Assembly (NCBI GenBank): GCA_015494465.1
Contig: WGBD01000011.1
Location: forward strand, 3,553 to 67,552
Direction of reading: 5' to 3'
DNA from: Candidatus Omnitrophota bacterium
GTDB lineage: Bacteria > Omnitrophota > Gorgyraeia > S143-82
Length of the DNA stretch: 64,000 nt
Shown: positions 23,517-55,291 of the stretch, one piece after another
How positions within the stretch are numbered: the first letter of the stretch is position 1
Layout of the letters: each line of letters opens with the position of its first letter
Made by a program: the position numbers and the translations under genes
The notes under the pieces: model-generated
Database searches by the model: none
The model's input: the letters and a program-made list of their open reading frames with translations, nothing else
What the model was told of the DNA's origin: nothing

Positions 23517-24527
23517 TCAAAATCGGCGACTGCTTATGGATAGGTGTAAGTCGTCCTTTATCCCCCGCACATACCACTGATAACCCAATCCCGCCACCAT
23601 AGCGGCATTGTCCAGACAATACCTCATCGGCGGGAAGTGTATCCTCAGACCGAGACCCTCTTCGGCCTCCTGAAACCTCTCCCGCAAATAGCGGTTGGCA
23701 GACACCCCTCCCCCCACCACCACATCTCTTATCCCGGTCTCTCTGGCAAGCCTTATCGTCTTATCCACCAACGGTTCCATCACCGCCTTCTGGAAACTGG
23801 CACACACATCGCAAACGAACCCCTCGCTCAATTCCTTATCCTTGAGGAAGTACAATAGAGCGGTCTTCACCCCGCTGAAACTGAAGTCGTAATCCCCGCC
23901 TCGGTAGACCGGAAATTCGAACCTGGGACTGCCCTGCAGGGCCTTTTTCTCTATTACCGGTCCTCCGGGGTATCCCAGGCCCAAAAGCCTCGCAGCCTTG
24001 TCCAAGGCCTCCCCAACTGCGTCGTCCTTCGTCTTGCCCACCAATTCCATGGCCTCGGGATGCCAATCCCGAACCACGAACAACAAAGTATGTCCCCCGG
24101 ATATCACCAGCCCCACGAACGGCATCCGAGGGGGATCGGGATTGTCTAAGAACGGGGCGTAGAGGTGGGCAAGGGTGTGGTCTATACCGACGATGTCCAG
24201 GCCCAGTCCCAGGGAAAATGCCTTGGCACAGGCAAGCCCGACTAGTAAAGACGGGGCAAGACCGGGGCGGTTGGTAACCGCTACCAGATCTATGGTCTCA
24301 ACAGCTATCCCGTCGCGCTCGAACAGATCCACCAAGAGCGGAGACAGGACTTCAATGTGTCTGCGCGCGGCTATCTCGGGTATTATCCCCCCGTAGCGGG
24401 AGTGGAACTCGAGACTGCTGGCCAAGACCTGTCGAACGACCCGTCTTCCTGCATCCACCACCGCAAAGGAGGTCTCGTCGCAAGAGGTCTCTATACCAAG
24501 GACCCTATTGATCCTCATCGGCATCAA
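23517..24527 (-). CDS. tsaD: tRNA N6-adenosine threonylcarbamoyltransferase
   Basis: 336 aa, Kae1/TsaD family. N-terminus MRINRVLGIETSCDETSFAVV with metal-binding His pairs. Confidence 0.9.
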   Translation of the reverse strand: MMPMRINRVLGIETSCDETSFAVVDAGRRVVRQVLASSLEFHSRYGGIIPEIAARRHIEVLSPLLVDLFERDGIAVETIDLVAVTNRPGLAPSLLVGLACAKAFSLGLGLDIVGIDHTLAHLYAPFLDNPDPPRMPFVGLVISGGHTLLFVVRDWHPEAMELVGKTKDDAVGEALDKAARLLGLGYPGGPVIEKKALQGSPRFEFPVYRGGDYDFSFSGVKTALLYFLKDKELSEGFVCDVCASFQKAVMEPLVDKTIRLARETGIRDVVVGGGVSANRYLRERFQEAEEGLGLRIHFPPMRYCLDNAAMVAGLGYQWYVRGIKDDLHLSISSRRF

Positions 24528-25047
24528 AGCCTTCTTCGTAATAGTCCAGAGAATCCTCCTGAAAGTACATATTGATGTTCATTATGAGGGGGAAGTTCCC
24601 ATTGGAAGGCGGGCTCTTTTTCTTCTTGAACAGATTCCAGAGGTTCCAACCACCGCTCTTCTTCCTGCCGAGATTCATAAGTTCTTCTATTATCCGATAG
24701 AGCTTACCCACCAACTCTTCCGGGGTGGGATTGTCGCTCAGGTTCACATAGAGAGACTTCTTTGCACATCTGGGACAAAGGAACAGCACCGTCCCACAGG
24801 AGAAACACTCCGCTACGGATCCCTCCTTCAGGTCAAAGGGTCTCCTGCATCTGTGACAGCGCAGGTTTTTTATACACTCAGGGCAGAGATAGGCAGAAGA
24901 CCTGCTCGGGGCCAGCAACTGGCGGGGTATGTCCGGGACGAACAATTTCCCACACCCGTCGCACCTCTGGGGAGTGCCCACCTCCGTGGCCACCCACTCC
25001 ACCTTCCTGCCTATCAGCCTCTTATGCCGACACCTCTTTTGAGCCAT
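24505..25047 (-). CDS. Hypothetical double zinc-ribbon protein with basic linker and acidic tail (180 aa)
   Basis: ATG at 25047 is preceded by the strong SD CCAAGGAGGAAAGG. Cys ligand pairs CDGC, CPEC, CHRC, CFSC and CPRC. These are followed by a basic segment GRKKSGGWNLWNLFKKKK, then an acidic tail EDSLDYYEEGFDADEDQ. Overlaps the thiC stop by 26 nt and the tsaD start by 23 nt. Confidence 0.7.
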   Translation of the reverse strand: MAQKRCRHKRLIGRKVEWVATEVGTPQRCDGCGKLFVPDIPRQLLAPSRSSAYLCPECIKNLRCHRCRRPFDLKEGSVAECFSCGTVLFLCPRCAKKSLYVNLSDNPTPEELVGKLYRIIEELMNLGRKKSGGWNLWNLFKKKKSPPSNGNFPLIMNINMYFQEDSLDYYEEGFDADEDQ

Positions 25048-30276: not shown

Positions 30277-30305
30277 ATTATACCCTTAACTTGAACCTTC
30301 GTCAA
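30277..30305 (-). promoter_or_regulatory. Putative promoter of lysC (-35 TTGACG, 17 nt spacer, -10 TATAAT)
   Basis: Minus strand reads TTGACGAAGGTTCAAGTTAAGGGTATAAT, followed by a leader of about 60 nt ending in the SD GGAGG, then the ATG at 30216. The -35 overlaps the stop of the upstream dehydrogenase gene. Confidence 0.65.
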
Positions 30306-31342
30306 AAGCACCTCATCCCCTTCTTCTTCCTGCACTCTTGTCCGCACTTGTAACATATCTCGTTCTTGAGATATCCCCCTTCAAAGAATTCCCTGAGGTT
30401 CTCAAGGGTCACCCGGGCGATGTTCCTTAAGGCGTCAGAGGTAAAGAAGGCCTGATGGGAGGTAACTATCACATTGGGGAATGTCAGGAGGCGCGCCAGG
30501 ACATCGTCGGTGATTATCTCACCGGACTTGTCCTCGAAGAAGTACTCGGTCTCTTCCTCGTAGACATCCAACCCCGCATATCCTATCTTACCGCTCTTCA
30601 ATCCCTCTATCAGGGCCCGGGTGTCTATCAGGCGTCCCCTACCGGTGTTGATTATCATTACGCCCGGCTTCATCTTGGCAATGGCATCCCGATCTATCAT
30701 GTGCTCGTTTTCCTTGGTGAGAGGGCAATGCAGGGATATGACATCGGAGTTGGCGTACAGCGTATCCAGATCCACATACCTGACCCCGAACGCCTTGGCG
30801 AATTCCTCGTCGGGATAAGGATCGTAAGCGAGCACCTCCATGCCCATACCCCGCAGTATAGAGATCACCGCCTTGCCTATCTTCCCGGTGCCAATTATCC
30901 CTGCGGTCCTGCCGTGCATGTCAAACCCGAGCAGGCCGTTCAGGGAGAAGTTCCCCTCCCGGGTGCGCAGGTAGGCCTTGTGTATCTTGCGGTTCAGACA
31001 GAGCATAAGGGCGACGGTGTGCTCTGCAACCGCATAGGGCGAATAGTCCGGGACCCTGACCACATGGATCCTGCCGTAAGCGGACTTGAAATCCACATTG
31101 TTGTACCCCGCACACCTCAAGGCGATCACCTTTACCCCCAACTCGTAGAGGGCATCTATTACCTCAGCGGAGAGGTCGTCGTTAACGAAGGCGCACACCG
31201 CAGGAAACCCCTTGCACAGACCAACGGTGCGGGGATTCAGGCGGGCTTCAAAGTAAACGATGTCAAAACCAAACCTCTGGTTTTCCTCTTCGAAGAAGCG
31301 GCGATCGTAGGGCTTGGTGTCAAAGAAGGCCACCCTTTCCAT
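30302..31342 (-). CDS. D-isomer-specific 2-hydroxyacid dehydrogenase (D-lactate dehydrogenase-like) with a Cys-rich C-terminal tail
   Basis: 346 aa. NAD-binding motif GIIGTGKIGKAV and the catalytic His/Glu/Arg pattern of the D-2-HDH family. The last 20 aa, NEICYKCGQECRKKKGMRCF, carry four Cys. Confidence 0.8.
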   Translation of the reverse strand: MERVAFFDTKPYDRRFFEEENQRFGFDIVYFEARLNPRTVGLCKGFPAVCAFVNDDLSAEVIDALYELGVKVIALRCAGYNNVDFKSAYGRIHVVRVPDYSPYAVAEHTVALMLCLNRKIHKAYLRTREGNFSLNGLLGFDMHGRTAGIIGTGKIGKAVISILRGMGMEVLAYDPYPDEEFAKAFGVRYVDLDTLYANSDVISLHCPLTKENEHMIDRDAIAKMKPGVMIINTGRGRLIDTRALIEGLKSGKIGYAGLDVYEEETEYFFEDKSGEIITDDVLARLLTFPNVIVTSHQAFFTSDALRNIARVTLENLREFFEGGYLKNEICYKCGQECRKKKGMRCF

Positions 31343-32492
31343 ACCTACCTCCCTCGTCCAACATCCTCTTTATCTCGTAAACCACGCGATCCACATCATC
31401 ATCCAAGAGGCGCACATCCGAGGGCAGACAGATACAGCGCTCCACCAGATCCAGAGACTTGCCCCTCCCAAAGTAAGGCGCACCCAGATAGGGTGCCTGA
31501 AGGTGGTTTGCCATCCACAGGGGGCGGCTCTGTATCCCCCGGGCGTTGAGTCCTTTCAGAAGGTAATCCCGCACCTGCCGGGCACGAGGAAACTCTAACC
31601 GCAATACATTCAACCAATAGTTGGCCTGCCCCCGTTTCGGCCTGACCAGCTTAAGGGAGCCCTCTCCCCGCAGGGCTGAGGAATACCAGCGATGGATGGT
31701 CCTCTTCTTCTTTAGGTGCTCGGGCAGGTACCCCAACTGGGAGAGGCCTAGGCCTGCCTGCAGGGCAGACATACGATAGTTGTATCCCACCTCTCCGTGG
31801 AGGTAATAGAGGGGATCGTCCTTCGCCTGGGTCCCGAGGTGCCTGGCCCGGGAATAGACCTTGCGCCGATTGGTCAGGAGCATCCCACCTGCTCCGGTGG
31901 TGATTATCTTGTTCCCGTTAAAACTCAGGATCCCGACATCACCGAAGGTACCCAACGATACACCGTTCAACTTGCTACCCAAGGCCTCTGCGGAATCTTC
32001 GATCAGAACGAGATTGTTCTCCGCACACACCGACTTCAGTGCGTTCACATCTGCGGGATTGCCCATCACATGGGTAACCAACACCGCCTTAACCGGTCGC
32101 CCTTCAAAGGTCAATCGCTTCCCCCTCCGCCCGCAGGCCTTGGAGATGAACCTCTTCACCCAAGCGACGGACATATTGAGATCGTCGTCCGCATCTACAA
32201 ACACGGGCAGCGCTCCAACATAGGAGACGGCATTGACGGTGGCTATAAAGGTTATGTCAGGGACCAGCACCACATCCCCCCTGCCTATCCCCACCGAGAG
32301 CAATGCCAGATGCAGGGCAGAGGTCCCGCTGGCGGTGGCAAAGGCATAACGCACGCCGGTATAGGATGCCACCTGCCTTTCGAATTCCTCCACTGCAGGA
32401 CCGAGCGCAGACACCCATTCCGACAGGAGAATATCCTTCAGGACCTCAACCGCATCAGGGTAGATAACCGGATCGTTTAACCTGAGCCTCAC
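31320..32492 (-). CDS. DegT/DnrJ/EryC1/StrS-family PLP-dependent sugar aminotransferase (GnnB-like candidate)
   Basis: 390 aa. ATASGTSALHLAL, a PLP-lysine in SFNGNKIITTGAGGMLL, and LIEDSAEALG. Confidence 0.8.
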   Translation of the reverse strand: MRLRLNDPVIYPDAVEVLKDILLSEWVSALGPAVEEFERQVASYTGVRYAFATASGTSALHLALLSVGIGRGDVVLVPDITFIATVNAVSYVGALPVFVDADDDLNMSVAWVKRFISKACGRRGKRLTFEGRPVKAVLVTHVMGNPADVNALKSVCAENNLVLIEDSAEALGSKLNGVSLGTFGDVGILSFNGNKIITTGAGGMLLTNRRKVYSRARHLGTQAKDDPLYYLHGEVGYNYRMSALQAGLGLSQLGYLPEHLKKKRTIHRWYSSALRGEGSLKLVRPKRGQANYWLNVLRLEFPRARQVRDYLLKGLNARGIQSRPLWMANHLQAPYLGAPYFGRGKSLDLVERCICLPSDVRLLDDDVDRVVYEIKRMLDEGGRYGKGGLL

Positions 32493-33145
32493 CCTTTCGC
32501 CTCCATCCTTTCCAAGGCCATTCTCGCCGCCGAGGTCTCGGCAGTCTTGCGATTCGTACCCTTACCTACCGCAACGAGTTTACCGTTTATGAAGACACCT
32601 ACCTCGAACTCCGGACGATGCCTTGGCCCCTTCACCCCCAGGACGGAGTACTTAGGGGAGGCATTCCCCTTGGCCTGGGAGAGCAGTTGCAATCTCTCCT
32701 TTGGACCCAGCACATCCTCAGGGGTAAGGGCCTCTATCACCCCTGTCCAGAGACGCTCTATAAGACGGTAGGCCGAAGGGAGCCCACCGTCCAGATAAAC
32801 CGCTCCCACTATCGCCTCCATCGCATCCGCCAGCACCTTTGCGGAAGTCGCCTCGGAGCGTATTAGCACATAACGGGACAGGTCAACTACCTCTGCCACC
32901 TCCCGCAAGACCTTGCGGGAGACCAGGTAGGACTTGAGACGCGTGAGCACGCCCTCGTGGGCCCTGGAGAGATAACGGAACAGGTAATCAGATATAACCA
33001 ACCCCAATACGCTGTCTCCCAAGAACTCCAGACGCTGGAAGTTTGCCTTGGGATCCGCGCTGGGGTGGACCAGTGCCAGACGCAGGAGGTCCGGATCCCG
33101 AAAGCGATAACCCAGATTATCCTGCAACCTGCCGAGATCCCTCAT
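32489..33145 (-). CDS. rnc: Ribonuclease III
   Basis: 218 aa. RNase III signature ERLEFLGDSVLG and a C-terminal dsRBD. Confidence 0.92.
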   Translation of the reverse strand: MRDLGRLQDNLGYRFRDPDLLRLALVHPSADPKANFQRLEFLGDSVLGLVISDYLFRYLSRAHEGVLTRLKSYLVSRKVLREVAEVVDLSRYVLIRSEATSAKVLADAMEAIVGAVYLDGGLPSAYRLIERLWTGVIEALTPEDVLGPKERLQLLSQAKGNASPKYSVLGVKGPRHRPEFEVGVFINGKLVAVGKGTNRKTAETSAARMALERMEAKG

Positions 33146-34473
33146 AGCAGTTCCGCTGCCATAGAGGCCACATCACTGCGTTCGCTCTTGGTGAGCACGA
33201 CATGGCCAAACAGTTCCTGTCCCTTGAGTCGTTCTACGCAATAGGTAAGCCCGTTGCTGTAATAGTCCAGATAAGGGCTGTCTATCTGATAGGGATCTCC
33301 GGTGAGGATTATCTTGCTCTTCTCCCCAACCCGGGAGATGATGGTCTTGACCTCGTGGGGCGAGAGGTTCTGGGCCTCGTCTATGAGGATGTACTGGGAA
33401 GGTATGCTTCTCCCCCGCATGTAGGTTAGGGCCTCTATCTCTATGATGCCCTCCTCTATGAACCTCTCCACATCCATCCGGCTGAATTCCTTGCGCCTGC
33501 CCTTCTGCCCCCGGCTGGTCAGGATGAACTCCAGATTGTCGTATATCGGCCCCATCCAGTTAGAGAGTTTCTCCTCCTTACTGCCCGGCAGGTAACCAAT
33601 ATCCTTGCCCAGAGGCATAACCGGACGGGAGATAAGTATCCGGGTATAGACCTCCTCGTCTATCACCTTGTGCAATCCCGCTGCGAGCGCCAGGAGGGTC
33701 TTGCCCGTACCTGCGGCACCGACGAGGGTGACCAGTTTTATGCTGTCGTCCAACAGCAGGTGCAGGGCCATCACCTGCTCTTTATTGCGCGGTTTTATGG
33801 ACCAGACCGCACCGGAGCGGTTGGTTAGGGGGACGATCTTCTTCTGAGAGGCCTTGTAGATGGCCAGACCCGAATGGGCGGGGTTCTCCTTTTCCCTTAT
33901 CAGAAAAAATTCGTTGGCGTAGGCAGAGAAACCGTCCTCCACCGGCAGGGCCCCTTTGGTGAAGAGGTTCTCCATATCCTCTGCGGACAGGTACAGTTCC
34001 CTCCAGCCGGGATAGAGTTCGGTGGTCTCTATCTTGCCCGCGACATAATCCTCTGCCCTTATCCCAAAGGCATTGGCCTTGACGCGCAGGTTTATGTCCT
34101 TGGTGATGAATATAACCTCCACTTCGGGATCTGCCTTCTGCAGGAGGTAGACGGTCATAAGCATGCGGTTGTCAGGCGTGTCAGGTGAGATGCCGAGATC
34201 CTGATGTGCGCGGGTCAGGTCCAGGAAAGATGGGATCTTCAGGAGACCGCCGTTCTCCAGAGGGACCCCTTTGCTGAAGTCGCCTTCCTTGCGCAAGGCA
34301 TCCAAAGTGCGTATGATTTGCCGAGCGTTTCGTCCTAATTCGTCGTCCACGCGCTTGAACTTGTCCAATTCTTCAAGGACCTCTATCGGGATTATCACCT
34401 CATTTTCCCCAAAAGAGAATATCGCATTGGAGGCGTGCAGGAGCACATTGGTATCCAGGACGAACCGCTTCAT
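33142..34473 (-). CDS. PhoH2-type protein (N-terminal PIN domain fused to a PhoH-like ATPase)
   Basis: Start MKRFVLDTNVLLHASNAIFSF is a PIN fold. It is followed by the P-loop VTLVGAAGTGKTLLALA. The ATG at 34473 is one nt after the hisF stop. The ORF-track extension overlaps hisF. Confidence 0.85.
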   Translation of the reverse strand: MKRFVLDTNVLLHASNAIFSFGENEVIIPIEVLEELDKFKRVDDELGRNARQIIRTLDALRKEGDFSKGVPLENGGLLKIPSFLDLTRAHQDLGISPDTPDNRMLMTVYLLQKADPEVEVIFITKDINLRVKANAFGIRAEDYVAGKIETTELYPGWRELYLSAEDMENLFTKGALPVEDGFSAYANEFFLIREKENPAHSGLAIYKASQKKIVPLTNRSGAVWSIKPRNKEQVMALHLLLDDSIKLVTLVGAAGTGKTLLALAAGLHKVIDEEVYTRILISRPVMPLGKDIGYLPGSKEEKLSNWMGPIYDNLEFILTSRGQKGRRKEFSRMDVERFIEEGIIEIEALTYMRGRSIPSQYILIDEAQNLSPHEVKTIISRVGEKSKIILTGDPYQIDSPYLDYYSNGLTYCVERLKGQELFGHVVLTKSERSDVASMAAELL

Positions 34474-34474
34474 T

Positions 34475-35248
34475 TCAGGCCCTCCCTTCTGGCATAAGGC
34501 GAACCGGGATCCCACGGGAACTCAGATACTCCTTGACCTCGGGTATAGTGAACTGGCGAAAGTGAAAGACCGAGGCAGCGAGCACCGCATCCGCCCCAGC
34601 GATGAGCACCTCGTAAAAGTGCTCCATCTTCCCTGCCCCACCGGATGCGATGACCGGCACATCCACCACCGATGCTACCTTTGCGGTCAACTCCACATCG
34701 TAGCCCCGTTTCGTCCCGTCCGCATCCATACTCGTCAGCAGGATCTCGCCGGCCCCAAGATCGCAAACCCGCTTTGCCCATTCTATAGCATCCAATCCGG
34801 TATCCTTTCTACCCCCCTCAACGAATACATTCCAGCGCCCCATCTCTACCCTGCGGGCATCTATCGCCACCACTATGCACTGACTTCCAAACTTCCTCGC
34901 TCCCTCCTTTATCAGGTTCGGGTTCCTGACTGCAGAGGTGTTTATGGAGACCTTGTCCGCACCCGCTAAAAGGAGCTCCCGAATGTCCTCGATAGTGCGG
35001 ATCCCACCCCCCACCGTAAGGGGCATAAACACGCTCTCCGCAGTCCTGCGGACCACATCTATCATTATTCCCCTCTTCTCGTAACTGGCGGTGATGTCCA
35101 GAAAGACCAGTTCGTCTGCCCCCTGCTCCTCGTACACCTTTGCATTCTCCACCGGATCGCCTGCGTCTATCAGGTTGACGAAGTTCACTCCCTTGACGAC
35201 CCGCCCTGCCTTTACATCCAGACACGGTATTATCCGTTTCGCCAGCAC
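34475..35248 (-). CDS. hisF: Imidazole glycerol phosphate synthase cyclase subunit
   Basis: 257 aa. [23 protein letters not shown] is the canonical HisF N-terminus. Confidence 0.93.
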
Positions 35249-36369
35249 TATATCCCCTCCAGTATTACACGGGCAGCGGTCTGACTGGCCTGACCGGAAA
35301 AGAGACTATCCGACAACCTTCCCAGTTCCCTGCTCACGAACTCGTACCGCTCTCTGTCCTTAAGGATCTCTTTTGAGACCTTCAAGAGATCCTCGGGAGT
35401 GAATCCTTTCTGGATCAACTCCGGTACCAGTGTCCCACCGTAGAGTATGTTAACCATGGAGATGTGTTTGACCCTGACCGCCCACCTCAAGAGGTAATAG
35501 GTCATTGGCGAGACCTTGTACACCACCACCATCGGTTTGCGGTAGTACATCGTCTCCACGGTTGCGGTACCCGATGCCACCCAGACCAGATCTGCACCCG
35601 CAAGGGAACTGCCGTGATCCTCTGGCTCGATCAAAACCGCCCCCGAGGACTCCACAAACGGGCTGTACATAAACCTCTCCAGCGTGGGTGCGCGGTGGAT
35701 CCCCGCCTTTACTCCCCTCCCCCATCTACTCAAGGCCTCCAGCATAACTGGAAGGTGCCTTTCCAATTCCTGCCTGCGGGATCCGGGGAGGAGCGCAAGG
35801 TAGACCTCCTCCTGCCCCAGACCCAGTCTCCTGCGAAATCCTCTGTCCACCCTCCTGTCCCTCAACACCTCCCCCAGCGGATGCCCAACGAATCGGGCCT
35901 TTATACCGTACCTGGCGTAAAACTCCACCTCAAACGGGAATATAACCAGGATCTCGTCCATCATCCTCATGTACTTTACCCGACCTCTACCCCAGGCCCA
36001 CAACTGGGGGGAAATGTAATATACGAACTTGGTGTTCTTCAGCTTAGGACGAAGCTCCCTCGCCAGCCTCAGATTGAACCCGGGGTAATCCACGAACACG
36101 AGGGCAGACGGCCTCGTCTCAAGTATGTGCTCTTTCACCGTGCGGTAGAGATAGTGAAACTCGTCGTAGTGCTGGAGCACCTCCCAAATACCGACCACTG
36201 CCAGACCGGTGGGATCGGCGATCACCTTTGCCCCTGCTCGATAGCACTCCTTCCCCCCCATCGCGTAGATCTCAAGCGACGGATCGAGCCGATAAAGGGC
36301 AGATATCAACCTCCCGGCGTAGGCATCACCCGAGGCCTCACCGCAGAGCAAGAACAGACGCCTTCCCAT
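35248..36369 (-). CDS. lpxB: Lipid-A-disaccharide synthase
   Basis: 373 aa GT19. N-terminus [21 protein letters not shown] aligns with the E. coli LpxB N-terminus. Confidence 0.88.
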
Positions 36370-37321
36370 AACCGAAACGCTTGCGAATTATCCGTGAACG
36401 CGTCTTCTTTATGGCCTTGTTTACGCGCTCTGCCACCTTCAGGGCCAGAAGGCCCTCCACACCGGAAACCGGGGGATTCGTTCCCGTATGTATCGCCTTC
36501 ACGAAGGCCTTTATCTCCTCTTTGAGGGGCTCACTGCGGGTGGGTTGCAACACCCGCTTTTCGAGACTGCCTCTGTTGAGCACGAACAACTCCACCTGCT
36601 GTTCTATGTAATCTATAGAGACATAGGCCCCGGGGAAGAACATCCTGATCTTCCTCACCGTCTCGTCGCTCACCCTGCTGGCGGTGATGTCGCATATAGT
36701 CCCGTTCTTGAAGGTGATGCGGGCGTTGGCTATGTCGTCTTTACCGGTCAGGACCGGGGCCCCTACTGCCTCCACCCGCTTTAGGGCATAGGGGATAAAC
36801 CAGAGACATATGTCTATGTCGTGGATCATAAGGTCCATCACCACGCTCACGTCGGTGGCCCGATTAGGGAACGGACTGAGTCTGTGACACTCTACGAATA
36901 TCGGAGCGGAAGGGACCATCTCCCGCAACATCTGCATGGCGGAGTTAAACCGCTCCACATGGCCCACTTGGAGGATCACCCCCCTCCTCTTGGCGAGTCT
37001 AAACAGCCTCTTGGCAAGGGACAATGAACCGGTAAAGGGTTTCTCTATAAGACAGTGCCTGCCCATCTCTATCGCCTCCCTCGCGACCTCGTAATGGGAG
37101 GTCGTGGGCACCACTATACTCACTGCTGATACCTCTGAGAGGAGGGCCTGCATAGTGGGGAAGGTCTTCACGCCCAGTTGCCTGCCAACCTCTATAGCCT
37201 TGTCCACATTTATGTCGTAAACCCCGACGAGCTCCACCTCCTCCAGCTCGGAATATATCCTGGCGTGGACAGAGCCCAATCTACCAACCCCTATAACGCC
37301 TACTTTTAACTTATCCTTCAT
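36338..37321 (-). CDS. Gfo/Idh/MocA-family NAD(P)-dependent oxidoreductase (GnnA-like candidate)
   Basis: 327 aa. [23 protein letters not shown] is a Rossmann N-terminus, with a GFO_IDH_MocA C-terminal domain. The 3' end overlaps the lpxB start by 32 nt. Confidence 0.78.
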
Positions 37322-38919
37322 CGTTTTGAGGCCTTCAATGCCTGACGGATGAGTCCCTTAAACAAGGGATGGGCCTTGTCAGGCTTGGACTTGAACTCGG
37401 GGTGGAACTGCACCGCTATGAAGTAGGGATGATCCTCCAATTCCACTATCTCCACTAGATCCTTCAGGGGATAGACGCCGGATACCACCAGTCCCCGGGA
37501 GGTAAGCAGGTTCCTATAGTCGTTGTTGAACTCGTAACGGTGCCGGTGGCGCTCACTGACCTCCTCCCTCCCGTAAAGCCTGTAGGCGAGGGTGCCCCTG
37601 GCTATCCGGCAGGGATAGGCACCCAGACGCATCGTCCCGCCCAGTTGCTGGATAGCCTTCTGCTCTTCCAACAAGCTGATCACCGGATATTCGGTCTCAG
37701 GGTCGAACTCAGTGGAGTTGGCGGAGGTCAGCCCGCAGACATTCCTTGCGAACTCTACCACTGCTGCCTGCATCCCCAGACAGATCCCCAAAAATGGCAC
37801 CTTTCTCTCCCGGGCATACCTTATCGCTACCACCTTACCCTCAAATCCCCTCTGGCCAAATCCCCCTGGTACCAGTATCCCGTCTGCGGAATCAAGTATA
37901 GAGGTGTCTTCCAGGAGCTTTTCCGAATCCACCTTTATTATCTCCACCCTGCTGTCGTTGGCGATCGCCCCGTGGCGCAGGGCCTCGTAGATGGACTTAT
38001 AGGCGTCCTGCAGTTCAATGTACTTGCCGACCACCGCTATCCTTACCGAACGCTTGGCCCGCTTCCACTTGTTGACCACCTTCTCTTCCCAGTCGGAGAG
38101 GTCTGCGGAAGGGGCGGGAATGCGGAGTTTGTGCAGGATTATCTCGTCCAGTGCCTGCTGTTTAAACACGAGAGGTATCTCGTAGATGTCGTCTACATCT
38201 ATCGCCTGGATAACCGCGTTCTCCTCCACATTGCAAAACAAGGCTATCTTGCGGATTATCGCCTGAGAGAACCTGCGCTCCGTCCTGCAGAGAAGGATGT
38301 CGGGCTGGATACCTATCTCCCTCAGTTTGCCCACACTGTGCTGGGTGGGCTTGGTCTTCAACTCACCTGCCGCCTTGATGTAGGGCACAAGGGTGAGGTG
38401 TACATTTATGGCGTTGTGGGCACCCACCTCAAGCCGAAGTTGGCGGATTGCCTCCAGAAACGGGAGGCTTTCTATGTCTCCCACCGTCCCGCCTATCTCC
38501 ACGATAACTATGTCCAGGTGCCTGCCCTTGCTCACCTGTTTGATGTTCTGCTTTATCTCGTCGGTAACATGGGGTATCACTTGTACGGTTGCACCTAGGT
38601 ATTCGCCCTTGCGCTCCTTGGTGATGATGGAGTAATAGATCTTGCCGGTGGTGATGTTGTTGAGCCGACTGGCGCGCATGGAGGTAAACCTCTCGTAGTG
38701 GCCCAGATCCAGATCCGTTTCTGCGCCGTCGTCGGTAACATACACCTCGCCGTGCTGATAGGGATTCATCGTGCCGGGATCCACATTGATGTAAGGGTCG
38801 CACTTCACTATAGCCACCTTAAGCCCCCGGGCCTCCAATAGTTTCCCAATGGAGGCACAGGCCACCCCCTTCCCCAGACTGGAAACGACGCCCCCGGTCA
38901 CGAATATGTACTTAGGCAT
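37318..38919 (-). CDS. pyrG: CTP synthase
   Basis: True start [19 protein letters not shown] at 38919. C-terminal class I glutamine amidotransferase domain. The ORF-track N-terminal extension overlaps kdsB. Confidence 0.93.
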
Positions 38920-39646
38920 GACGCTCCCCCAGTATCCTTTCCACGGTTTCCACATCGTCCGGGACATCCACTCCCCAGGATCTCTCCCGGGTATAAAACA
39001 TCTTTATCTTAACACCTCTCTCCAAGGCCCTCAACTGTTCCAACTTCTCGATGGACTCCAGTATCCCCGGAGGCCACTTTACGAAGGAGAGAAGAAACTG
39101 CCTATCGTAGCCGTATATCCCTATGTGCTGGTAGTAGTTAACGCCCTTTTCGGCCCTATCGTAGGGTATAGGTGAGCGCGAGAAGTACAGGGCAGTGCCA
39201 TCCGAGGCAAGGACCACCTTCACCACATTGGGATCCGTCGGATCGCCCTGGAGATCGGTGTACACGCTGGCCATAGTCGGGCGTTCCTCAAGCAGGAACC
39301 CCATAAATCCCCTCAACATCCCGGGATCGAGGGCGGGTTCGTCTGCCTGTAAGTTTACCACGAACCTCCCCTTCCGATCCCGCGCCACCTCTGCAACCCG
39401 ATCCGACCCGCTGGGGCAATCAGGAGAGGTCATCTTCACCCGGGCCCCAAACCCTTCACAGACCTTCCGCACCTCTTCGGAATCGGTGGCGATTACCACA
39501 TTATCCGCAGGCACCCCCGTATCCAGAGCGGATCGCCAGACCCACCAGACCATAGGCCGACCCAGGATGGGATAGATTACCTTCCCCGGGAACCTCGTAG
39601 AGGCGTATCGGGCAGGTATGACGATCAGGACATCCTCCAAACCCAT
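38912..39646 (-). CDS. kdsB: 3-deoxy-manno-octulosonate cytidylyltransferase (CMP-Kdo synthetase)
   Basis: Start [22 protein letters not shown] at 39646 with SD GGTGAGG. Lies in the conserved kdsB-pyrG arrangement. Confidence 0.88.
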
Positions 39647-39650
39647 AACC

Positions 39651-40361
39651 TCACCCCACCGGCAAGTCCAACCCAAACCCTTCGATCATGGAAAATACCC
39701 TCTCGGGATCCGGTTCCTTGCGGATCAGACCTATCTCGTCGAGGATGCGCTCCATCGGGACCAGATCCAGATAACGCCGGTCCCTGGCCTCCTCTATCAG
39801 GCGCAGGCACCGATCGGAAAAGCGAAAGCCCAACCTCACACAGTACCTAGCCCCTCGCAGGATCCTTATGGGATCGTCGCAGAAACTGCGCTCGTGCAGG
39901 ACATCGAGTATCCCTTGGGCAAGGTCCTCTCTACCCCCGTAGAGGTCTATCGGTCCCGACGGATCTAACGCGCCATTGATCAACAGCCAGGCCATAGCGT
40001 TTATTCGGAAGTCTCTGCGGAACAGATCCTCCTCTATAGTGGCAGGGCTGATTACCGGACGGCTCGCACAGTGGGGGTAATGTTCCTTCCTTGCGGTGGC
40101 AAAGTCCACCCTGCCCACACCTTCAAACCAGACACTACAGGTTCGATAGTACTTGAAGACCCTCTTCTTCCTATCGGGAAAGTGGCGACTGGCAAAGTCC
40201 ACCGCATCCGCCTCCACCACCACATCTACATCAAAGGAATCCCTCCCCAAGAGGATGTCCCTCACCGCCCCACCGACGAGCCCGATCCGGACTCCGTCCT
40301 CTTCACCCAGACCGGAAAGGTAAGATAAAAACTCCTCAAGACTCCTCTGCATAGTGGGCAT
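39651..40361 (-). CDS. PolyA-polymerase/CCA-adding-enzyme family nucleotidyltransferase, head domain only (236 aa)
   Basis: GLVGGAVRDILLGRDSFDVDV matches the GGxVRD...DxD head motif, and RRDFRINAMA matches the RRDFTINA motif of tRNA nucleotidyltransferases. There is no HD or body/tail domain. Confidence 0.7.
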   Translation of the reverse strand: MPTMQRSLEEFLSYLSGLGEEDGVRIGLVGGAVRDILLGRDSFDVDVVVEADAVDFASRHFPDRKKRVFKYYRTCSVWFEGVGRVDFATARKEHYPHCASRPVISPATIEEDLFRRDFRINAMAWLLINGALDPSGPIDLYGGREDLAQGILDVLHERSFCDDPIRILRGARYCVRLGFRFSDRCLRLIEEARDRRYLDLVPMERILDEIGLIRKEPDPERVFSMIEGFGLDLPVG

Positions 40362-40848: not shown

Positions 40849-41739
40849 TTAGAACCGGTCCTTTTTCCAATCGTAAAGGAACGCATTCGTCCGCTTCACA
40901 TAATCCCAAAAGTCCTCGGATAACCGTTTCATATCTATCTTATCATAACTGGAATACCGGGCATAAGACAATCGAAATGCCCTGTAAAAGTCGTAACCCG
41001 AGCGCATCCTCCAACAGAAGGTCGCAAAGAAGTTGCGGGGAAACTCGGTCAACAAAAAGTCTATGAGGAGACAGCTCTCCGCATAGAATAGGTCTGCGGT
41101 CTCCTTGTCCATCTTGGCGTACTGACTTCTCCAATCGAATATCTTCTCCAGAGGGATGTACTTGCCCTCCTTCAGGGCCTGGGCAACTATGTAATGAGAG
41201 GCAAAGACCCGCATCTGACTCTCTTCTCTCATAGCGACCCCCTCGTCTATCACATGGGGGATCGGTGTTCCATTCCTGGCCTCATAGAATAGGATGTGGG
41301 TCATCTCGTGGGGCAACACCTGGTACAAAAGGGTCTCCTCCCTCTTGGGTATGTAATAACAGTGTATCTCCCTCCGCTCGGGGATCGCCCCTCCCACCGA
41401 CCACTCCGGCAACTCTACATATTCGTGGAAGTCCTGCTCGTCTCGGTACACATATATACGACAGCGATCGTCCCAAATCCAATAACTGCTCCGCAACAGC
41501 CCCAGATCCTGGACTATCTCCCGATAATACTTCTCCGCATAGCGTTTCAACCGATAAACGAAATCCTTGGGCACACCAGGGCGATAATATATCAGAAAGT
41601 GCATAGACCTTAATAGGTCCCATCCGCTCGAGGATCTAGCCCGTGGGGGATAAGACCCGTACAGCGGAGTAGACATCAATTCCAAGAACACAAGGGCTAT
41701 TGCAACAATGCATCCAATATCTCTTCGCCTGAAGGACAT
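40849..41739 (-). CDS. Membrane-anchored HExxH zinc-metallopeptidase-like protein
   Basis: ATG at 41739 with SD AAAGGAGAGG. N-terminal signal anchor IGCIVAIALVFLEL. HEMTH followed by EG, consistent with an MA-clan-like motif. The ORF-track extension upstream is in the murG-like gene's other frame. Overlaps the murG-like stop by 43 nt. Confidence 0.6.
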   Translation of the reverse strand: MSFRRRDIGCIVAIALVFLELMSTPLYGSYPPRARSSSGWDLLRSMHFLIYYRPGVPKDFVYRLKRYAEKYYREIVQDLGLLRSSYWIWDDRCRIYVYRDEQDFHEYVELPEWSVGGAIPERREIHCYYIPKREETLLYQVLPHEMTHILFYEARNGTPIPHVIDEGVAMREESQMRVFASHYIVAQALKEGKYIPLEKIFDWRSQYAKMDKETADLFYAESCLLIDFLLTEFPRNFFATFCWRMRSGYDFYRAFRLSYARYSSYDKIDMKRLSEDFWDYVKRTNAFLYDWKKDRF

Positions 41740-42746
41740 TGCAACCTCTCCTTTACCTGTCCCCCCAAGTTCTTGCGCAGGAGGTCGTCTTCGACCAAAG
41801 AAAAGATCGCGGAACGCAATCTCTCCTCCCATAGAGGCTGTCTCTCGTTTACCGCAACGACCGCAGGACCAAAGTAGGTTGCGTTCTCGCGCTGATGGGC
41901 CCGGGCATAAGGATAAGGCACGACCACCGCCGGCCGGCCCGCCATGGCAACCTCGGTCAGGGTCATTGCCCCTGCCCTGCAAACCACCACATCCGCTCCC
42001 CTTATAAGGGGATACACCGGCCAGATGTGACCCACCACATTCACTTTCTCAACATCGTACATAGCATAGGCCTGCTTGACATCCGCTACCCACCTGTCCC
42101 CGGAGATGTGTATGACCTCAACCTCCTCCCTTAATTCCGAAAGGATGCGGGGCAAGGTAGTATTCAGGCTCTGCGCTCCTCGGGTACCTCCCAAGACCAA
42201 GACCTTTACCCGATCCCCGGCACTGAACCTGAGAGAAGGCCTTAAAGAGGTATATATGTCGAACGGCAAGTTCGACGAATACACCGCCTTTGACCTCACC
42301 CACCTGGGAAAGTGATCCTCTCCCAATCCGTAAAAAACCGCCCTAGCGTGTACCGAAAAGAGCAGATTCCAGTTCCCCATAACCGCGTTCTGCTCGTGGA
42401 GGAAAAAGGGCAAGCGCTCCTTAATGGCCCGCAGATACAGGCCCAATCCGTAGGAAGAACCAAAATAGATCACCCTATCCACCTCCCTCCAAACCGACTC
42501 AATCTGCTCATCCCAGAACCTAAAAAAACCCTTTCTAAACCAGAGTATAATATCTTTCTTCGGCGACGGCAGGAAGGGAAGGTAAGATACACTATCCTCA
42601 GGCACTACCGAAGAGACCGCTTCTCTGGCAAAGGCCACCTCTTCAACCAACAGGTAGGCCTTTACATTATGGGCCTCCAAGAGCCGATAGAAGGAAAGGG
42701 CAGGGATTATGTGCCCCAACGACCCCCCGGTAATGAGAAGTACCAT
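41697..42746 (-). CDS. murG: GT28-family glycosyltransferase, MurG-like
   Basis: 349 aa. N-terminal ITGGSLGHIIP and central LGGTRGAQSLN match the MurG G-loop pattern. It is separated from murF by prfB and lacks mraY, murD and ftsW neighbours, so the assignment is moderately confident. Confidence 0.55.
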   Translation of the reverse strand: MVLLITGGSLGHIIPALSFYRLLEAHNVKAYLLVEEVAFAREAVSSVVPEDSVSYLPFLPSPKKDIILWFRKGFFRFWDEQIESVWREVDRVIYFGSSYGLGLYLRAIKERLPFFLHEQNAVMGNWNLLFSVHARAVFYGLGEDHFPRWVRSKAVYSSNLPFDIYTSLRPSLRFSAGDRVKVLVLGGTRGAQSLNTTLPRILSELREEVEVIHISGDRWVADVKQAYAMYDVEKVNVVGHIWPVYPLIRGADVVVCRAGAMTLTEVAMAGRPAVVVPYPYARAHQRENATYFGPAVVAVNERQPLWEERLRSAIFSLVEDDLLRKNLGGQVKERLQCPSGEEILDALLQ

Positions 42747-42752
42747 CTGGAC

Positions 42753-43850
42753 CTACTTCTTAGACACCTGCTTCAAATACGCGAATATGAACTCGTCCAG
42801 ATCGCCGTCCAAGACTGCCTGGACATTGCTGGTCTCCACCCCTGTGCGGTGATCCTTCACCAAGGTATAAGGCTGCATAACATAGGAGCGTATCTGACTG
42901 CCCCACTCTATCTTTTTCTTCTCACCGGTCTCCCGAGCTATCTCTTCTTGCCTCTTCTGTTCCTCTAACTCGTACAACCTTGCCTTGAGCATCCGCAGGG
43001 CGGTCTGTTTGTTCTGGAGTTGGGAGCGCTCGTTCCGGCAGGTCACGACTATCCCAGTGGGGATGTGGACTATCCTCACCGCAGAATCCGTGGTATTGAC
43101 GCTCTGGCCTCCGGGACCAGTGGAGCGGAAGACATCTATCCTCAGGTCCTCTTCTTTTATCTCCACCTCTATGTCCTCGTCCATCTCCGGGACCACATCT
43201 ACCGAGGCAAAAGAGGTGTGCCTGCGCTTGTTGGCGTCAAACGGAGATATCCTCACCAAGCGGTGAACCCCACGCTCTGCCTTGAGGTGTCCGTAGGCAT
43301 AAGGCCCTTTCACCAGCATAGAGACCGAACGGATCCCCGCTTCCTCTCCCGGGAGTATGTGAATCACCTCCACATCAAAGCCCTTAAGCGATGCCCACCT
43401 CTGGTACATCCGCATTAGCATGCTCACCCAATCGCAGGCCTCGGTCCCGCCGGCCCCTGCCTGTATCTCCAGAATCGCATTCTTTTCGTCAAATCTGCCG
43501 GAAAACAGCAGGTGCCGCTCCAGGTGTTCCAGTTCCCGGCCAATGGTCTCCACCTCCCTCTCCAATTCGGAGATCACGCCGGGATCGTCCTCGGAGAGTT
43601 CGAGGAGTTCCTCCGCGTCGGATATGCGGTTCCTCATCTCTTCCCACGGCTCTACGGTCTGACGCAGGGTCTTTAACTCCTGCATAAGTTGTCCCGACCG
43701 GCTCCGGTCCTGCCAGAGGCTGGCATCCTGCATCTGTGACTCTATCTCTGCCATGCGGGCCTTCTTGTCCGCTATGTTGAGGGTCTCACAGGCGGATTCC
43801 ACCCGCCTCTCCAGATCCTTGAGTATGTTCCTGAGTTCGACGACCTCCAT
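42753..43850 (-). CDS. prfB: Peptide chain release factor 2 (single uninterrupted ORF, no programmed frameshift)
   Basis: 365 aa with the GGQ motif (STGPGGQSVNTTDSAVRIVHIPTG) and an RF2-type tripeptide region. Confidence 0.9.
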   Translation of the reverse strand: MEVVELRNILKDLERRVESACETLNIADKKARMAEIESQMQDASLWQDRSRSGQLMQELKTLRQTVEPWEEMRNRISDAEELLELSEDDPGVISELEREVETIGRELEHLERHLLFSGRFDEKNAILEIQAGAGGTEACDWVSMLMRMYQRWASLKGFDVEVIHILPGEEAGIRSVSMLVKGPYAYGHLKAERGVHRLVRISPFDANKRRHTSFASVDVVPEMDEDIEVEIKEEDLRIDVFRSTGPGGQSVNTTDSAVRIVHIPTGIVVTCRNERSQLQNKQTALRMLKARLYELEEQKRQEEIARETGEKKKIEWGSQIRSYVMQPYTLVKDHRTGVETSNVQAVLDGDLDEFIFAYLKQVSKK

Positions 43851-43859: not shown

Positions 43860-45041
43860 TTATACCCAAAGTTCCAACAACCCGTCCAATCCAATACCCC
43901 GGGAGCCTTTTAGGAATACCCACTTCGCAGGAGATAGTATCCGAGCGATCTCTTCCTTGTATTGCCTCCAGTCCTCAAAACAATGGGCGCATACCTGCTC
44001 GTGCTCCACCGCCTCACGGAATTCCTTGCCTACGAACACCTTAATCGCGGAAGGGAACATGTACTGCGCAAAGGCAACGATGTCCCGGTGGTACTTCTGA
44101 CTCTCCGCTCCCAATTCCAGCATGTCCCCGAGGACCAGCCCCACTGACTCCTCCTCACCCACTAATTCCTTAAAACTGCTCAAACTGGCCTTCATAGACC
44201 CGGGATTGGCATTATAACTGTCGTCAACTACGCGTTTGTCTTTACCCTTTATCAGTCGAAATCTGCCCTCCGGCACCTCAAATTCCCTCCAATCCACCGA
44301 GACCAAATCCGGTATCCCCATCTCCTTACCGAGGGCAGACATCAGACCTAACAGATCGCGAAAGTGTTCGCCGGGGAGGGGGAATGTCTTCTCCTCCACC
44401 GCCCCAACCCAGTGCACGGGATAACCACGAACGAACTCCTCTAAGGCGAAGAAGAACCTGACCGGCACGAACCCCTTTTTCACCCCTGCGAGTATGTCCG
44501 ACTTCTCCCTTGCCACATCGGGGACCGATCCCAGACCCTCCAGGTGAGAGGGATAAACGCTGGTTATCACCGCGTAGTGCGGGCGCACGAGATCCGCAAG
44601 GGCCCTGATCTCACCCGGGGCACTGGTGCCCAATTCCAATACCCAGAATTCCGCGTCCAGATCCGCATTGCACACCGCCAAGGGAAGACCTATCTGGTTG
44701 TTGCGATTACCGGGGCTGAACGAGACCCTCTTTCCTGCACGAGTCAGGGCATACACCAGCATCTCCTTGAAGGTGGTCTTGCCCGCGCTACCGGTTATGC
44801 CGATAACCCTACCCGAAAACCGGGATCGCCTTTCCCTTGCCTTCTCCCAGAGGTATCCCACGGTATCCGGGACGCAGAGGATCTTCTCTCCGTCCGAATA
44901 ACCTGCCCCTTCGGGCACCACGCACAGACCCGCCCCCCGCTCCAGAGCAGAAGGCACGAACCTAACCCCACCCCTTATCGCCACGAAGACATCCCCGGGC
45001 TGGACTTGTCGGGAATCTATCCTGATCTTGCCCCTGCCCAC
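43860..45041 (-). CDS. murF: UDP-N-acetylmuramoyl-tripeptide--D-alanyl-D-alanine ligase
   Basis: 393 aa Mur ligase with a P-loop GITGSAGKTT. Follows murE with a 25 nt overlap. Confidence 0.85.
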   Translation of the reverse strand: MGRGKIRIDSRQVQPGDVFVAIRGGVRFVPSALERGAGLCVVPEGAGYSDGEKILCVPDTVGYLWEKARERRSRFSGRVIGITGSAGKTTFKEMLVYALTRAGKRVSFSPGNRNNQIGLPLAVCNADLDAEFWVLELGTSAPGEIRALADLVRPHYAVITSVYPSHLEGLGSVPDVAREKSDILAGVKKGFVPVRFFFALEEFVRGYPVHWVGAVEEKTFPLPGEHFRDLLGLMSALGKEMGIPDLVSVDWREFEVPEGRFRLIKGKDKRVVDDSYNANPGSMKASLSSFKELVGEEESVGLVLGDMLELGAESQKYHRDIVAFAQYMFPSAIKVFVGKEFREAVEHEQVCAHCFEDWRQYKEEIARILSPAKWVFLKGSRGIGLDGLLELWV

Positions 45042-53369: not shown

Positions 53370-54321
53370 GCCTTATCCTATCCCCCGCCAATTCGTCCAG
53401 ACCGTAATCCTCCTGCCACCAGCCCTTCTCCAGACCGAGCGAGAGCATCCACTCTTGCACATCCCTGTACTCCTTTCGGGTTATCCGCCGGGATACCTCC
53501 GGGACCTCGCCGGCCTTGTAGAAGGGATAGTACTGGCTCATGAGGGATATGTATACATCCTTTCCCAGATTCGTCCTTATCCACCTGAACCAGTCAAAGG
53601 ATCCCGAGGCATCGTTGGGCAGGACCAGGTGCCTTATCAGGACGCCTTTTAGCATAACTCCATCGGGAGAGAAGACCACCGATGGCCGTTGACGATACAT
53701 CTCCAAGAGAGCAGACCTTGCCACCTCAGGATAGTCTTTACTGCGGGCCAGTTTCATACTCCAGCGGCGGTGAAAGAACTTGGTATCCGGCAGGTAGACA
53801 TCCACCACCCCCTCGAGCAAGGCAAGGGTCTCTCTGCGCACATAAGAAGAGGTGTTGTAGACCAAAGGCAGGCGCAGGCCCATCGACACCGCTCTGTCCA
53901 AGGCCAATACTATGTGGGGCAGGTAATGTTCAGGAGTAACCAGATTGATGTTGTGCACTCCCATTGCCTGAAGTTCCAGCATGATGCGGGCGAGGTCGTC
54001 TATAGAGTAGATGCGCCCCTCGCCTTCCTGAGAGAAACGATAATTCTGACAGAATACGCACCCCAACGGACAGTGGGAGAAGAATATAGTCCCCGATCCC
54101 CCCTGCCCACTAATGCAGGGCTCCTCACCGGTGTGCACCATGTACCCGGCCAGTTCCAAATCAGCGCTAGCAGAGCAGAACCCCCTCTGGCCCTTCAACC
54201 TGTTCACACCGCAGGACCGGGGGCAGAGGCGACAGTTCTCCAATTGAGCCCAGAGATGCTCCCCTATCTCACGGAGCCTGCCTTCCCGTGCCAGTCTTAG
54301 ATAATCCGGCTCTATCGCCAT
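53353..54321 (-). CDS. Radical SAM protein, PflX-like (COG1313; pyruvate formate-lyase activating-enzyme homolog of unknown substrate)
   Basis: 322 aa. N-terminal CRLCPRSCGVNR motif and radical-SAM cluster CPLGCVFCQN. The gene overlaps the upstream gene by 53 nt and the downstream gene by 17 nt. Confidence 0.75.
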   Translation of the reverse strand: MAIEPDYLRLAREGRLREIGEHLWAQLENCRLCPRSCGVNRLKGQRGFCSASADLELAGYMVHTGEEPCISGQGGSGTIFFSHCPLGCVFCQNYRFSQEGEGRIYSIDDLARIMLELQAMGVHNINLVTPEHYLPHIVLALDRAVSMGLRLPLVYNTSSYVRRETLALLEGVVDVYLPDTKFFHRRWSMKLARSKDYPEVARSALLEMYRQRPSVVFSPDGVMLKGVLIRHLVLPNDASGSFDWFRWIRTNLGKDVYISLMSQYYPFYKAGEVPEVSRRITRKEYRDVQEWMLSLGLEKGWWQEDYGLDELAGDRIRHEFRH

Positions 54322-55291
54322 ACCTGTGCCTCAACAGGGTCGATACGAAGACGACCTTCACATTCTCCAACAACTCCGGTTCCATAATCAGTAGGGTATC
54401 CAAGGTAGAGGTGCGGTCGTGGCCTATCAATACGGCGTAGCCCTTCCTGCGGGCTATCTTCATCCCTAATCTGATCTGCCCCTTTATGTACTCAGGATTC
54501 AGGTCGTTATCTATAAAGACATCTCTCTTCACGCAGGGCAAACCCACTTCCTTTGCCACCTCCGTCACCACGCTCTTAGGAGAGGAGTAACTGTCCAGGA
54601 AAAACAACCCCCGCCGTTTCAACTCCCGCAATACGATCCGCATCACCCTGCGATCAGCGGTGGCCCGTGAGCCCATGTGGTTGTTGACGCCCTTTGCGTA
54701 CGGTACTTCCGCCAAGGCCCAATCGAGGATGCCTCGGATCTCCTCCTCACTCATCTCCACGGTTACGGTCCTAGGCTCCCAATGGGAACGGGAGAGTTTC
54801 ATCGGCTCCATTGGCAGATGGAGCATCACCTCTTTGTGGTATAACCGACACACCTGAGCAACCTGCCTGCTGAACCTGTGCCCCGGCAGTATCGCTATGT
54901 CCAGCGGGATACCTATCTCCTTCAGGTAGTGAATGTTCCTGTCGGAATATCCCCAGTCGTCCAGGACTATCGCCAGATAGGGGCGGGAGGATACCTTGGC
55001 GGATATTTGAGCTTTTAGGTTTGGTTTACCGGTCTTCTTCTTTTTAGACCCGGAAGCCCTCTTCTGAGGCGCTGCCCCTCGAGAAGATAGCTCCGTGGCC
55101 TTCCGAGATCTCAGGAGTCTCAACTGAGACTTCAGTTGCTGATTCTCTATCCAGAGCACGAGGACAAAAAGAGACAAGAAGAACAGACCCGCCAAAAGGA
55201 GCCATATAATCTCCTTCCTCCAGTCGAGTGGAGCCCTCTCTGGCCTCCTCTCCCTCCTCTTCTTGCCCCGCCTAGGCCTGCCCCCCATCAC
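54269..55291 (-). CDS. Divergent polysaccharide deacetylase family protein (YibQ-like), membrane anchored
   Basis: 340 aa. Basic N-terminus followed by a TM helix [21 protein letters not shown]. The periplasmic domain shows the YibQ-family pattern [13 protein letters not shown]... [11 protein letters not shown]. The start overlaps the DAHP synthase stop (ATGA). Confidence 0.7.

Follow-up and report, generated by a model that had tools for sequence, protein, structure and literature searches.

A predicted GnnA orthologue overlapping lpxB, and a nearby DegT aminotransferase of the LegC/PglE rather than the GnnB type, in a member of the Omnitrophota

In a 64-kb stretch of DNA from an uncultivated member of the Omnitrophota (the window, meaning the whole 64,000-nucleotide stretch that was analysed), an oxidoreductase gene of the Gfo/Idh/MocA family overlaps lpxB, and a gene for a DegT-family aminotransferase dependent on pyridoxal 5'-phosphate (PLP) follows a few genes further along. 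This arrangement raises the question whether the two genes encode GnnA and GnnB, the dehydrogenase and transaminase that convert UDP-N-acetylglucosamine (UDP-GlcNAc) to its 3-amino derivative UDP-GlcNAc3N for lipid A with a 2,3-diamino-2,3-dideoxyglucose (GlcN3N) backbone, as a sequence-only reading of the window had proposed. Both open reading frames (ORFs) are present on the minus strand where that reading had placed them, and with lpxB they form the subject of this analysis:

36338-37321, minus strand: GnnA-like Gfo/Idh/MocA oxidoreductase (327 aa, ATG start; PF01408 and PF22725)
35248-36369, minus strand: lpxB, lipid-A-disaccharide synthase (TIGR00215, 219 bits against a cutoff of 190; PF02684, 266 bits)
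31320-32492, minus strand: DegT-family PLP aminotransferase of the LegC/PglE/perosamine-synthase clade (390 aa, GTG start; PF01041, 292 bits)

The GnnA half of the proposed pair is borne out by structural matches (216 bits to 7bvj) and by lipid A neighbourhoods; the GnnB half is not, the DegT protein being a member of the LegC/PglE clade with only about 30% identity to the DegT proteins encoded next to gnnA elsewhere. The favoured interpretation, with a probability of about 0.62, is that the locus encodes a GnnA orthologue coupled to lpxB for the synthesis of GlcN3N lipid A, that the DegT enzyme is of the LegC/PglE type, and that the GnnB partner, if any, is encoded outside the window.

The oxidoreductase comprises a GFO_IDH_MocA domain (PF01408, 96 bits) and a C-terminal PF22725 domain (38 bits). 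Among all PDB sequences it has a single strong match, 7bvj/7bvk, with 216 bits (E 1e-62) over residues 5-307 of 327. This is the UDP-GlcNAc 3-dehydrogenase GnnA of Acidithiobacillus ferrooxidans; the two proteins are 39% identical over their full length, and the runner-up in the PDB scores 88 bits. An alignment of 20 family members, one of them 7bvj, shows no variation in the Rossmann motif G11-x-G13-x-x-G16 or at E93-K94-P95, H167-D168 and R216, and the GxGxxG, EKP and MIHD(I/L)D segments of the A. ferrooxidans enzyme are conserved in the window protein. The window protein is about as similar to 7bvj as are the GnnA-like proteins (40-42% identity) from skp-lpxD-fabZ-lpxA-gnnA-DegT-lpxB operons of Geobacter, Methylococcaceae, Thioalkalivibrio and Nitrospirota. 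The proteins from lpxA-gnnA-DegT-lpxB operons are 40-47% identical to the window oxidoreductase, whose nearest named GnnA-like homologues come mostly from Omnitrophota. A preprint that used 7bvj as a modelling template also terms it GnnA. Judged from these comparisons together with the gene neighbourhoods described below, the assignment of the oxidoreductase as a GnnA orthologue is solid at the level of orthology, and its enzymatic activity as an NAD-dependent UDP-GlcNAc 3''-dehydrogenase is predicted.

The top NCBIfam model for this protein is NF040723, describing the archaeal UDP-GlcNAc 3-dehydrogenase, with 226 bits and an alignment of residues 5-298 to model positions 1-295 of 302. The predicted chemistry is the same, but the protein lies outside this equivalog, the cutoff of which is 450 bits. 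It scores below every other curated NCBIfam cutoff as well, and reaches 128 bits with the inositol 2-dehydrogenase model, as could be expected of a generic Gfo/Idh/MocA dehydrogenase acting on inositol or another sugar and having no role in amino-sugar synthesis. However, the 216 bits obtained with GnnA compare with at most 88 bits for any other solved protein of this family, and the lipid A neighbourhood of the gene is conserved. A generic function is therefore considered extremely improbable.

The extent of this conservation was assessed by a scan of species-representative genomes, which yielded at least 80 loci in more than 10 phyla, 75 of them with enough downstream sequence to be informative. 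Among the 75 informative loci listed, the gnnA-like gene is followed directly by lpxB in 40, is separated from lpxB by a single DegT gene in 10 and stands alone in 24; at 1 further locus lpxB lies about 3.1 kb downstream. Outside the Omnitrophota, too, gnnA-lpxB pairs mostly lack an adjacent DegT gene. The loci of Geobacter and other Desulfuromonadales have the order skp-lpxD-fabZ-lpxA-gnnA-DegT-lpxB, a Nitrospirota locus additionally has lpxI ahead of gnnA and, behind lpxB, an MsbA-like gene, and a Bdellovibrionaceae locus reads fabZ-lpxA-gnnA-lpxB-lpxK, with no DegT gene adjacent. Bacteriovorax, which is related to Bdellovibrionaceae, is counted among the organisms with GlcN3N lipid A. Clustering of the neighbours at the 80 loci listed identified lpxB, an MsbA-like ABC transporter, lpxA, lpxI and lpxK as recurrent partners of gnnA, with lpxI located directly upstream in 13 of the 80; a Skp-like ORF of about 171 aa, the family of which was not checked, also recurs. 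A second recurrent aminotransferase family did not emerge from this clustering. In one Omnitrophota protein from a metagenome-assembled genome (P0013, partial), a GnnA-like region (residues 39-340) is joined in frame to the N terminus of LpxB (residues 343-467). This case is the only one, and it may be either a genuine fusion or the product of a frameshift error where the two genes overlap.

The A. ferrooxidans gene, which like the window gene adjoins lpxB, reportedly belongs to an lpxA-gnnA-gnnB-lpxB cluster, and the corresponding lpxA-gnnA-DegT-lpxB layout was observed in the Geobacter and Nitrospirota loci. The window differs from this layout in having pyrG and kdsB upstream of gnnA, without lpxA, and no gnnB immediately downstream. 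It also differs in its source, an uncultivated and thermophile-like lineage of Omnitrophota with a predicted GnnA.

The oxidoreductase could also be a dehydrogenase acting at C3 of UDP-GlcNAc, or of the uronic acid UDP-GlcNAcA, that feeds a glycan other than lipid A. It might, like WbpB/WlbA or the archaeal enzyme, provide 2,3-diacetamido sugars for an O-antigen, a capsule or the glycosylation of proteins; its adjacency to lpxB would then be a historical accident. The top NCBIfam model is consistent with such a role, the archaeal UDP-GlcNAc 3-dehydrogenase being an enzyme of a non-lipid-A pathway, as is the location of the gnnA-like gene away from lpxB in 24 of the 75 informative loci listed. 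In addition, NeuB and dehydratase/epimerase genes are located immediately upstream of gnnA-lpxB in two relatives (L001 and L002) whose GnnA is 71% identical to that of the window. However, in more than 10 phyla the gene is repeatedly found beside lpxB, lpxA, lpxI and lpxK, with the in-frame fusion to lpxB as one instance; among characterised proteins GnnA, an enzyme of lipid A synthesis, is the nearest; and no chain named WbpB or WlbA is present among the PDB matches listed at E <= 1e-5. Taken together, a function in a different glycan appears quite unlikely.

The position of the oxidoreductase relative to lpxB deserves separate consideration. The two genes overlap by 32 nt, as the sequence-only reading had noted, with the lpxB ATG at position 36369. 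On an identical contig (L084), a gene prediction made independently places the lpxB start 18 nt further in, for a protein of 367 aa and an overlap of 14 nt; the genes overlap whichever lpxB start holds. The other genes of this region are the following:

38912-39676, minus strand: kdsB, CMP-Kdo synthetase (NF003952, 281 bits against a cutoff of 193), opening the kdsB-pyrG-gnnA-lpxB block
37318-38967, minus strand: pyrG, CTP synthase (NF003792, 855 bits), overlapping the start of the gnnA-like gene by 4 nt
34475-35248, minus strand: hisF (TIGR00735, 392 bits against a cutoff of 294)
33142-34515, minus strand: PIN-PhoH2 (PF13638 and PF02562)
32489-33145, minus strand: rnc (TIGR02191, 187 bits against a cutoff of 166)
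30302-31342, minus strand: D-2-hydroxyacid dehydrogenase family gene (PF02826, PF00389), overlapping the DegT stop by 23 nt

The window is a single long run of minus-strand genes, in which the nine ORFs kdsB, pyrG, oxidoreductase, lpxB, hisF, PhoH2, rnc, DegT and 2-hydroxyacid dehydrogenase follow one another without gaps, the successive junctions measuring -56, -4, -32, -1, -41, -4, -4 and -23 nt. Because this whole chain overlaps or abuts, an overlap of ORFs is no specific sign of a functional link here. The tight coupling on which the sequence-only reading had relied is real, but it characterises the whole region rather than the oxidoreductase and lpxB in particular. In the favoured interpretation gnnA is co-transcribed and probably translationally coupled with lpxB, inside a block with a lipopolysaccharide theme (kdsB-pyrG-gnnA-lpxB) that belongs to the known GnnA system and contains nothing mechanistically new.

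The nine-gene chain (30302-39676, minus strand) is a very compact "superoperon" of unrelated functions, and a relative at 56-69% identity retains much of its order. One of its members (33142-34515, minus strand) is a fusion of a PIN domain with a PhoH-like ATPase, an RNA helicase/RNase of the PhoH2 type, and its position between hisF and rnc is conserved in the related loci L085 and L086. Every specific NCBIfam model falls below its cutoff for the 2-hydroxyacid dehydrogenase (30302-31342). All the named best matches of the threonyl-tRNA synthetase (ThrRS) come from Omnitrophota, with 62-65% identity. The thermophile-like character attributed to the source organism is crudely supported by the amino-acid composition of 55 window proteins, in which the IVYWREL fraction is 0.455 and the charged-minus-polar value 12.2, a crude index.

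The DegT gene is co-directional with the oxidoreductase gene and lies 3.8 kb downstream of it, a few genes away as had been described, with four genes (lpxB, hisF, PIN-PhoH2 and rnc) in between. What it has in common with GnnB is the fold: like the C3'' aminotransferases of the GnnB/WbpE (WlbC) type (3NU7, 3NYU; 7B0D; QdtB, 3FRK), its product belongs to the DegT/DnrJ/EryC1/StrS family of PLP enzymes of fold type I (PF01041). For a closer comparison, the DegT proteins encoded between gnnA-like genes and lpxB in Geobacter, Desulfuromonadales, Methylococcaceae, other Gammaproteobacteria and Thioalkalivibrio (n = 8, full length) were used as a proxy for GnnB, in place of the A. ferrooxidans GnnB sequence itself. 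These eight proteins form one tight group in a neighbour-joining (NJ) tree, in which the other seven reach 59-74% identity with the Geobacter representative (L040), across phyla. With the window DegT, all eight share no more than 30-33%.

Matches to solved structures separate the two types of protein in the same way. The Geobacter DegT scores 378 bits with 7b0d, 319 with WbpE, 308 with QdtB, 301 with the DesV-like 2oga and 120 with PglE; the characterised proteins among the first four are, as far as is known, C3 aminotransferases. The window DegT gives 237 bits with 1o61 and 232 with 4ztc, both of which we take to be Campylobacter jejuni PglE, and 216 each with perosamine synthase and 7b0m, followed by lower scores with 7b0d (140), QdtB (128) and WbpE (97). 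It is 24-30% identical to WbpE and 7b0d, as against 37-38% to LegC/PglE (1O61/4ZTC) and GDP-perosamine synthase (3BN1). Phylogenetic placement was among the checks that the sequence-only reading had suggested; in the NJ tree the window DegT and its relatives group with PglE and proteins named LegC, and the gnnA-linked DegT proteins with WbpE and 7b0d.

The motif around the PLP-binding lysine follows this division. All gnnA-linked DegT proteins, WbpE and 7b0d carry SFFPSK(N/P)LG..GDGG or something close to it, with SFFPSKNLG..GDGG as the form given for the gnnA-linked proteins. The corresponding sequence is SFNGNKIITTGAGG, again with slight variation, in the window DegT and all its homologues as well as in PglE and perosamine synthase. 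The two forms, SFFPSK..GDGG and SFNGNK.ITTG.GG, tell the two clades apart among the 27 sequences of the comparison. On the basis of its separate NJ clade, its identity of about 30%, its scores of 97 bits with WbpE against 237 with PglE, and its different PLP-lysine motif, the window DegT was rejected as GnnB.

Its more probable function is suggested by its relatives. The top NCBIfam model is TIGR04181 (LegC family) with 376 bits, followed by PseC with 225. Close relatives (52-83% identity) score 367-377 bits with TIGR04181, and two more distant homologues, P0144 and P0132 (43-44% identity), for which NCBI uses the name LegC, reach 481 and 492 bits. Homologues at 41-44% identity exceed the cutoff of the model. 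According to its Pfam domains, P0132 (44% identity) is encoded in a full legionaminic-acid-type cluster comprising a Polysacc_synt_2 dehydratase, DegT, a PglD-like acetyltransferase, NeuB, Epimerase_2, CBS-NTP_transferase and CTP_transf_3. At two other loci, L087 and L088, where the DegT protein is 55 and 52% identical to that of the window, the DegT stop overlaps a gene for a CBS-NTP_transferase; nucleotidyltransferases of this unusual type accompany legionaminic-acid synthesis in the C. jejuni pathway. The order hisF-rnc-DegT is kept in L088, in a neighbourhood without gnnA-lpxB, and the 2-hydroxyacid dehydrogenase, which follows the DegT gene in the window and distinguishes it from LegC/PglE systems, is not downstream of DegT in L085, L087 or L088. 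From these gene orders, the stable partners of DegT are rnc/hisF and, where present, a nucleotidyltransferase of the nonulosonic-acid type, and not gnnA-lpxB. The window DegT, a slightly divergent addition to the LegC/PglE clade as far as its sequence indicates, is predicted with moderate confidence to be a C4 aminotransferase for a surface sugar; confidence is only moderate because the window holds no other gene of such a pathway.

Two further observations concern the surroundings of this gene. The hisF gene (34475-35248), which stays beside rnc-DegT in L088 and has no hisH beside it in the window, was considered as a glycan-amidation gene of the WbuZ/HisF2 type tied to DegT. This was rejected, as it exceeds the cutoff of the HisF equivalog (392 against 294 bits) and stays below that of WbuZ (288 against 300). 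In L085, a MamF_MmsF-family gene (13152-13466) and a ParA/MinD-like ATPase gene are located downstream of DegT; some Omnitrophota are magnetotactic.

If the window DegT is not GnnB, the partner of GnnA has to be sought elsewhere. The scan for pathway genes covered window ORFs of at least 150 aa, namely all minus-strand genes and four plus-strand ORFs. No lpxA, lpxC or lpxD was present among the ORFs scanned. About 4.6 kb of sequence added on one side of the window from Logan contigs, which encodes an alanine racemase, a radical SAM protein and a ROK kinase, contained no lpxA either. To our knowledge, the selectivity of LpxA for UDP-GlcNAc3N is not reducible to a simple residue signature. The gnnA and gnnB genes are unlinked in Mesorhizobium loti. 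Since such an arrangement is documented and most gnnA-lpxB pairs have no adjacent DegT gene, a distal gnnB is the most economical expectation for the Omnitrophota genome.

The DegT enzyme could nevertheless form a pair with the oxidoreductase if a LegC-type enzyme had displaced the WbpE-type GnnB in a non-orthologous manner, or if it were bifunctional. The two genes are parts of one unbroken co-directional chain of overlapping ORFs, and the order gnnA-lpxB-hisF-PhoH2-rnc-DegT is conserved in L085 and L086. No GnnB-type gene is found in the window or within 10 kb of the 40 listed gnnA-lpxB pairs, those of Omnitrophota included, and DegT enzymes can shift their regiospecificity in evolution. These points are countered by the low identity to gnnA-linked DegT proteins and by the membership of the PglE/Per/LegC clade with its PLP-lysine motif. 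Furthermore, in L087 and L088 the DegT gene is coupled to the CBS-nucleotidyltransferase gene and detached from gnnA-lpxB, and in L001 and L002, whose GnnA is 71% identical to that of the window, there is no DegT gene within 10 kb. Three unrelated genes (hisF, PhoH2 and rnc) separate lpxB from DegT in the window, and gnnA and gnnB are unlinked in some genomes. Overall, a GnnA/GnnB pair of this kind is unlikely. In Omnitrophota-like and several other phyla, gnnA is overlapped with lpxB, or once fused to it, and has no WbpE-type gnnB close by. It is very unlikely that the C3'' transamination in lineages with such welded gnnA-lpxB genes falls to a non-orthologous aminotransferase, here the divergent LegC-like DegT of the conserved gene run, or that the GnnA-LpxB unit has a role beyond the supply of UDP-GlcNAc3N.

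Returning to the favoured interpretation, a GnnA orthologue with a distal transaminase, the chemistry can be outlined by analogy with the characterised A. ferrooxidans pathway. GnnA would oxidise UDP-GlcNAc to UDP-3-keto-GlcNAc, which a transaminase other than the DegT of the window would turn into UDP-GlcNAc3N. The latter would enter the Raetz pathway via LpxA and give rise to lipid A with a GlcN3N-containing backbone. The GnnB partner, if there is one, would be encoded outside the 64-kb window, in an arrangement like that of M. loti. The DegT enzyme most likely makes a 4-amino-4,6-dideoxy-hexosamine intermediate, which may be destined for a legionaminic-acid-like or bacillosamine-like surface sugar, and its gene would be in this run only because housekeeping genes without a common function are packed closely one behind the other in this compact genome.

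Several points weigh against this interpretation. The pathway is incomplete as seen, with no GnnB-type gene and no second DegT gene among the scanned ORFs of the window. The oxidoreductase remains well under the cutoff of the archaeal equivalog (226 against 450 bits). The clade of the window DegT, with its 367-377 bits, is under the curated LegC cutoff of 420 bits, and the window contains none of the remaining leg, pse or pgl genes, such as those for a dehydratase, an N-acetyltransferase, a NeuB-type synthase, a hydrolysing 2-epimerase, a CBS-nucleotidyltransferase or a CMP-transferase, so that the LegC-like role is itself a putative one. The full order kdsB-pyrG-gnnA-lpxB-hisF-PhoH2-rnc-DegT is kept in the lineage of L085 and L086 (GnnA 69% and DegT 56% identical), and this synteny could be due to a link in function instead of common descent. 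Finally, we know of no characterised GnnA-like protein from gnnA-lpxB pairs of the Omnitrophota type and of no lipid A structure for this lineage. The presence of GlcN3N lipid A in the source organism is a plausible prediction from GnnA alone.

If the assignment of GnnA is right, this uncultivated and apparently thermophilic member of the Omnitrophota probably has a 2,3-diamino-glucose lipid A backbone. The same would apply to many Omnitrophota, Verrucomicrobiota and other metagenome-assembled genomes with a gnnA-lpxB pair, and a known lipid A variant would be extended to phyla without chemical data. Such a backbone carries amide-linked acyl chains that are resistant to hydrolysis, and is associated with lower TLR4 activation in Campylobacter. 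For annotation, the locus indicates that the clade of a DegT protein encoded near gnnA should be checked before it is named gnnB.

The remaining part of the window contains several genes of lesser relevance to this pathway. Two ORFs, 63-2402 (779 aa) and 2481-3167 (228 aa), are the only clear plus-strand genes of the window; neither they nor the minus-strand ORFs 3923-4708 (261 aa) and 24505-25047 (180 aa) have a Pfam match at E <= 1e-5. A murF-like ORF (43860-45041, minus strand, 393 aa) matches TIGR01143 in two stretches with 275 bits against a cutoff of 288.6, and may be shortened or internally deleted. The adjacent prfB gene for RF2 (42753-43850, minus strand) is one uninterrupted ORF of 365 aa, and for this reason appears to be without the usual programmed +1 frameshift site. 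Directly after prfB, a MurG-like glycosyltransferase of family GT28 is encoded (41697-42746, minus strand). It scores 130 bits with the murG model against a cutoff of 250; since an MGDG_synth/GT28 gene occurs on a relative contig, the window gene may code for a glycolipid synthase rather than MurG. Two other proteins are related to the cell envelope: a GT9 heptosyltransferase-like protein (6431-7501, minus strand) and a "divergent polysaccharide deacetylase" (54269-55291, minus strand; PF04748, 231 bits).

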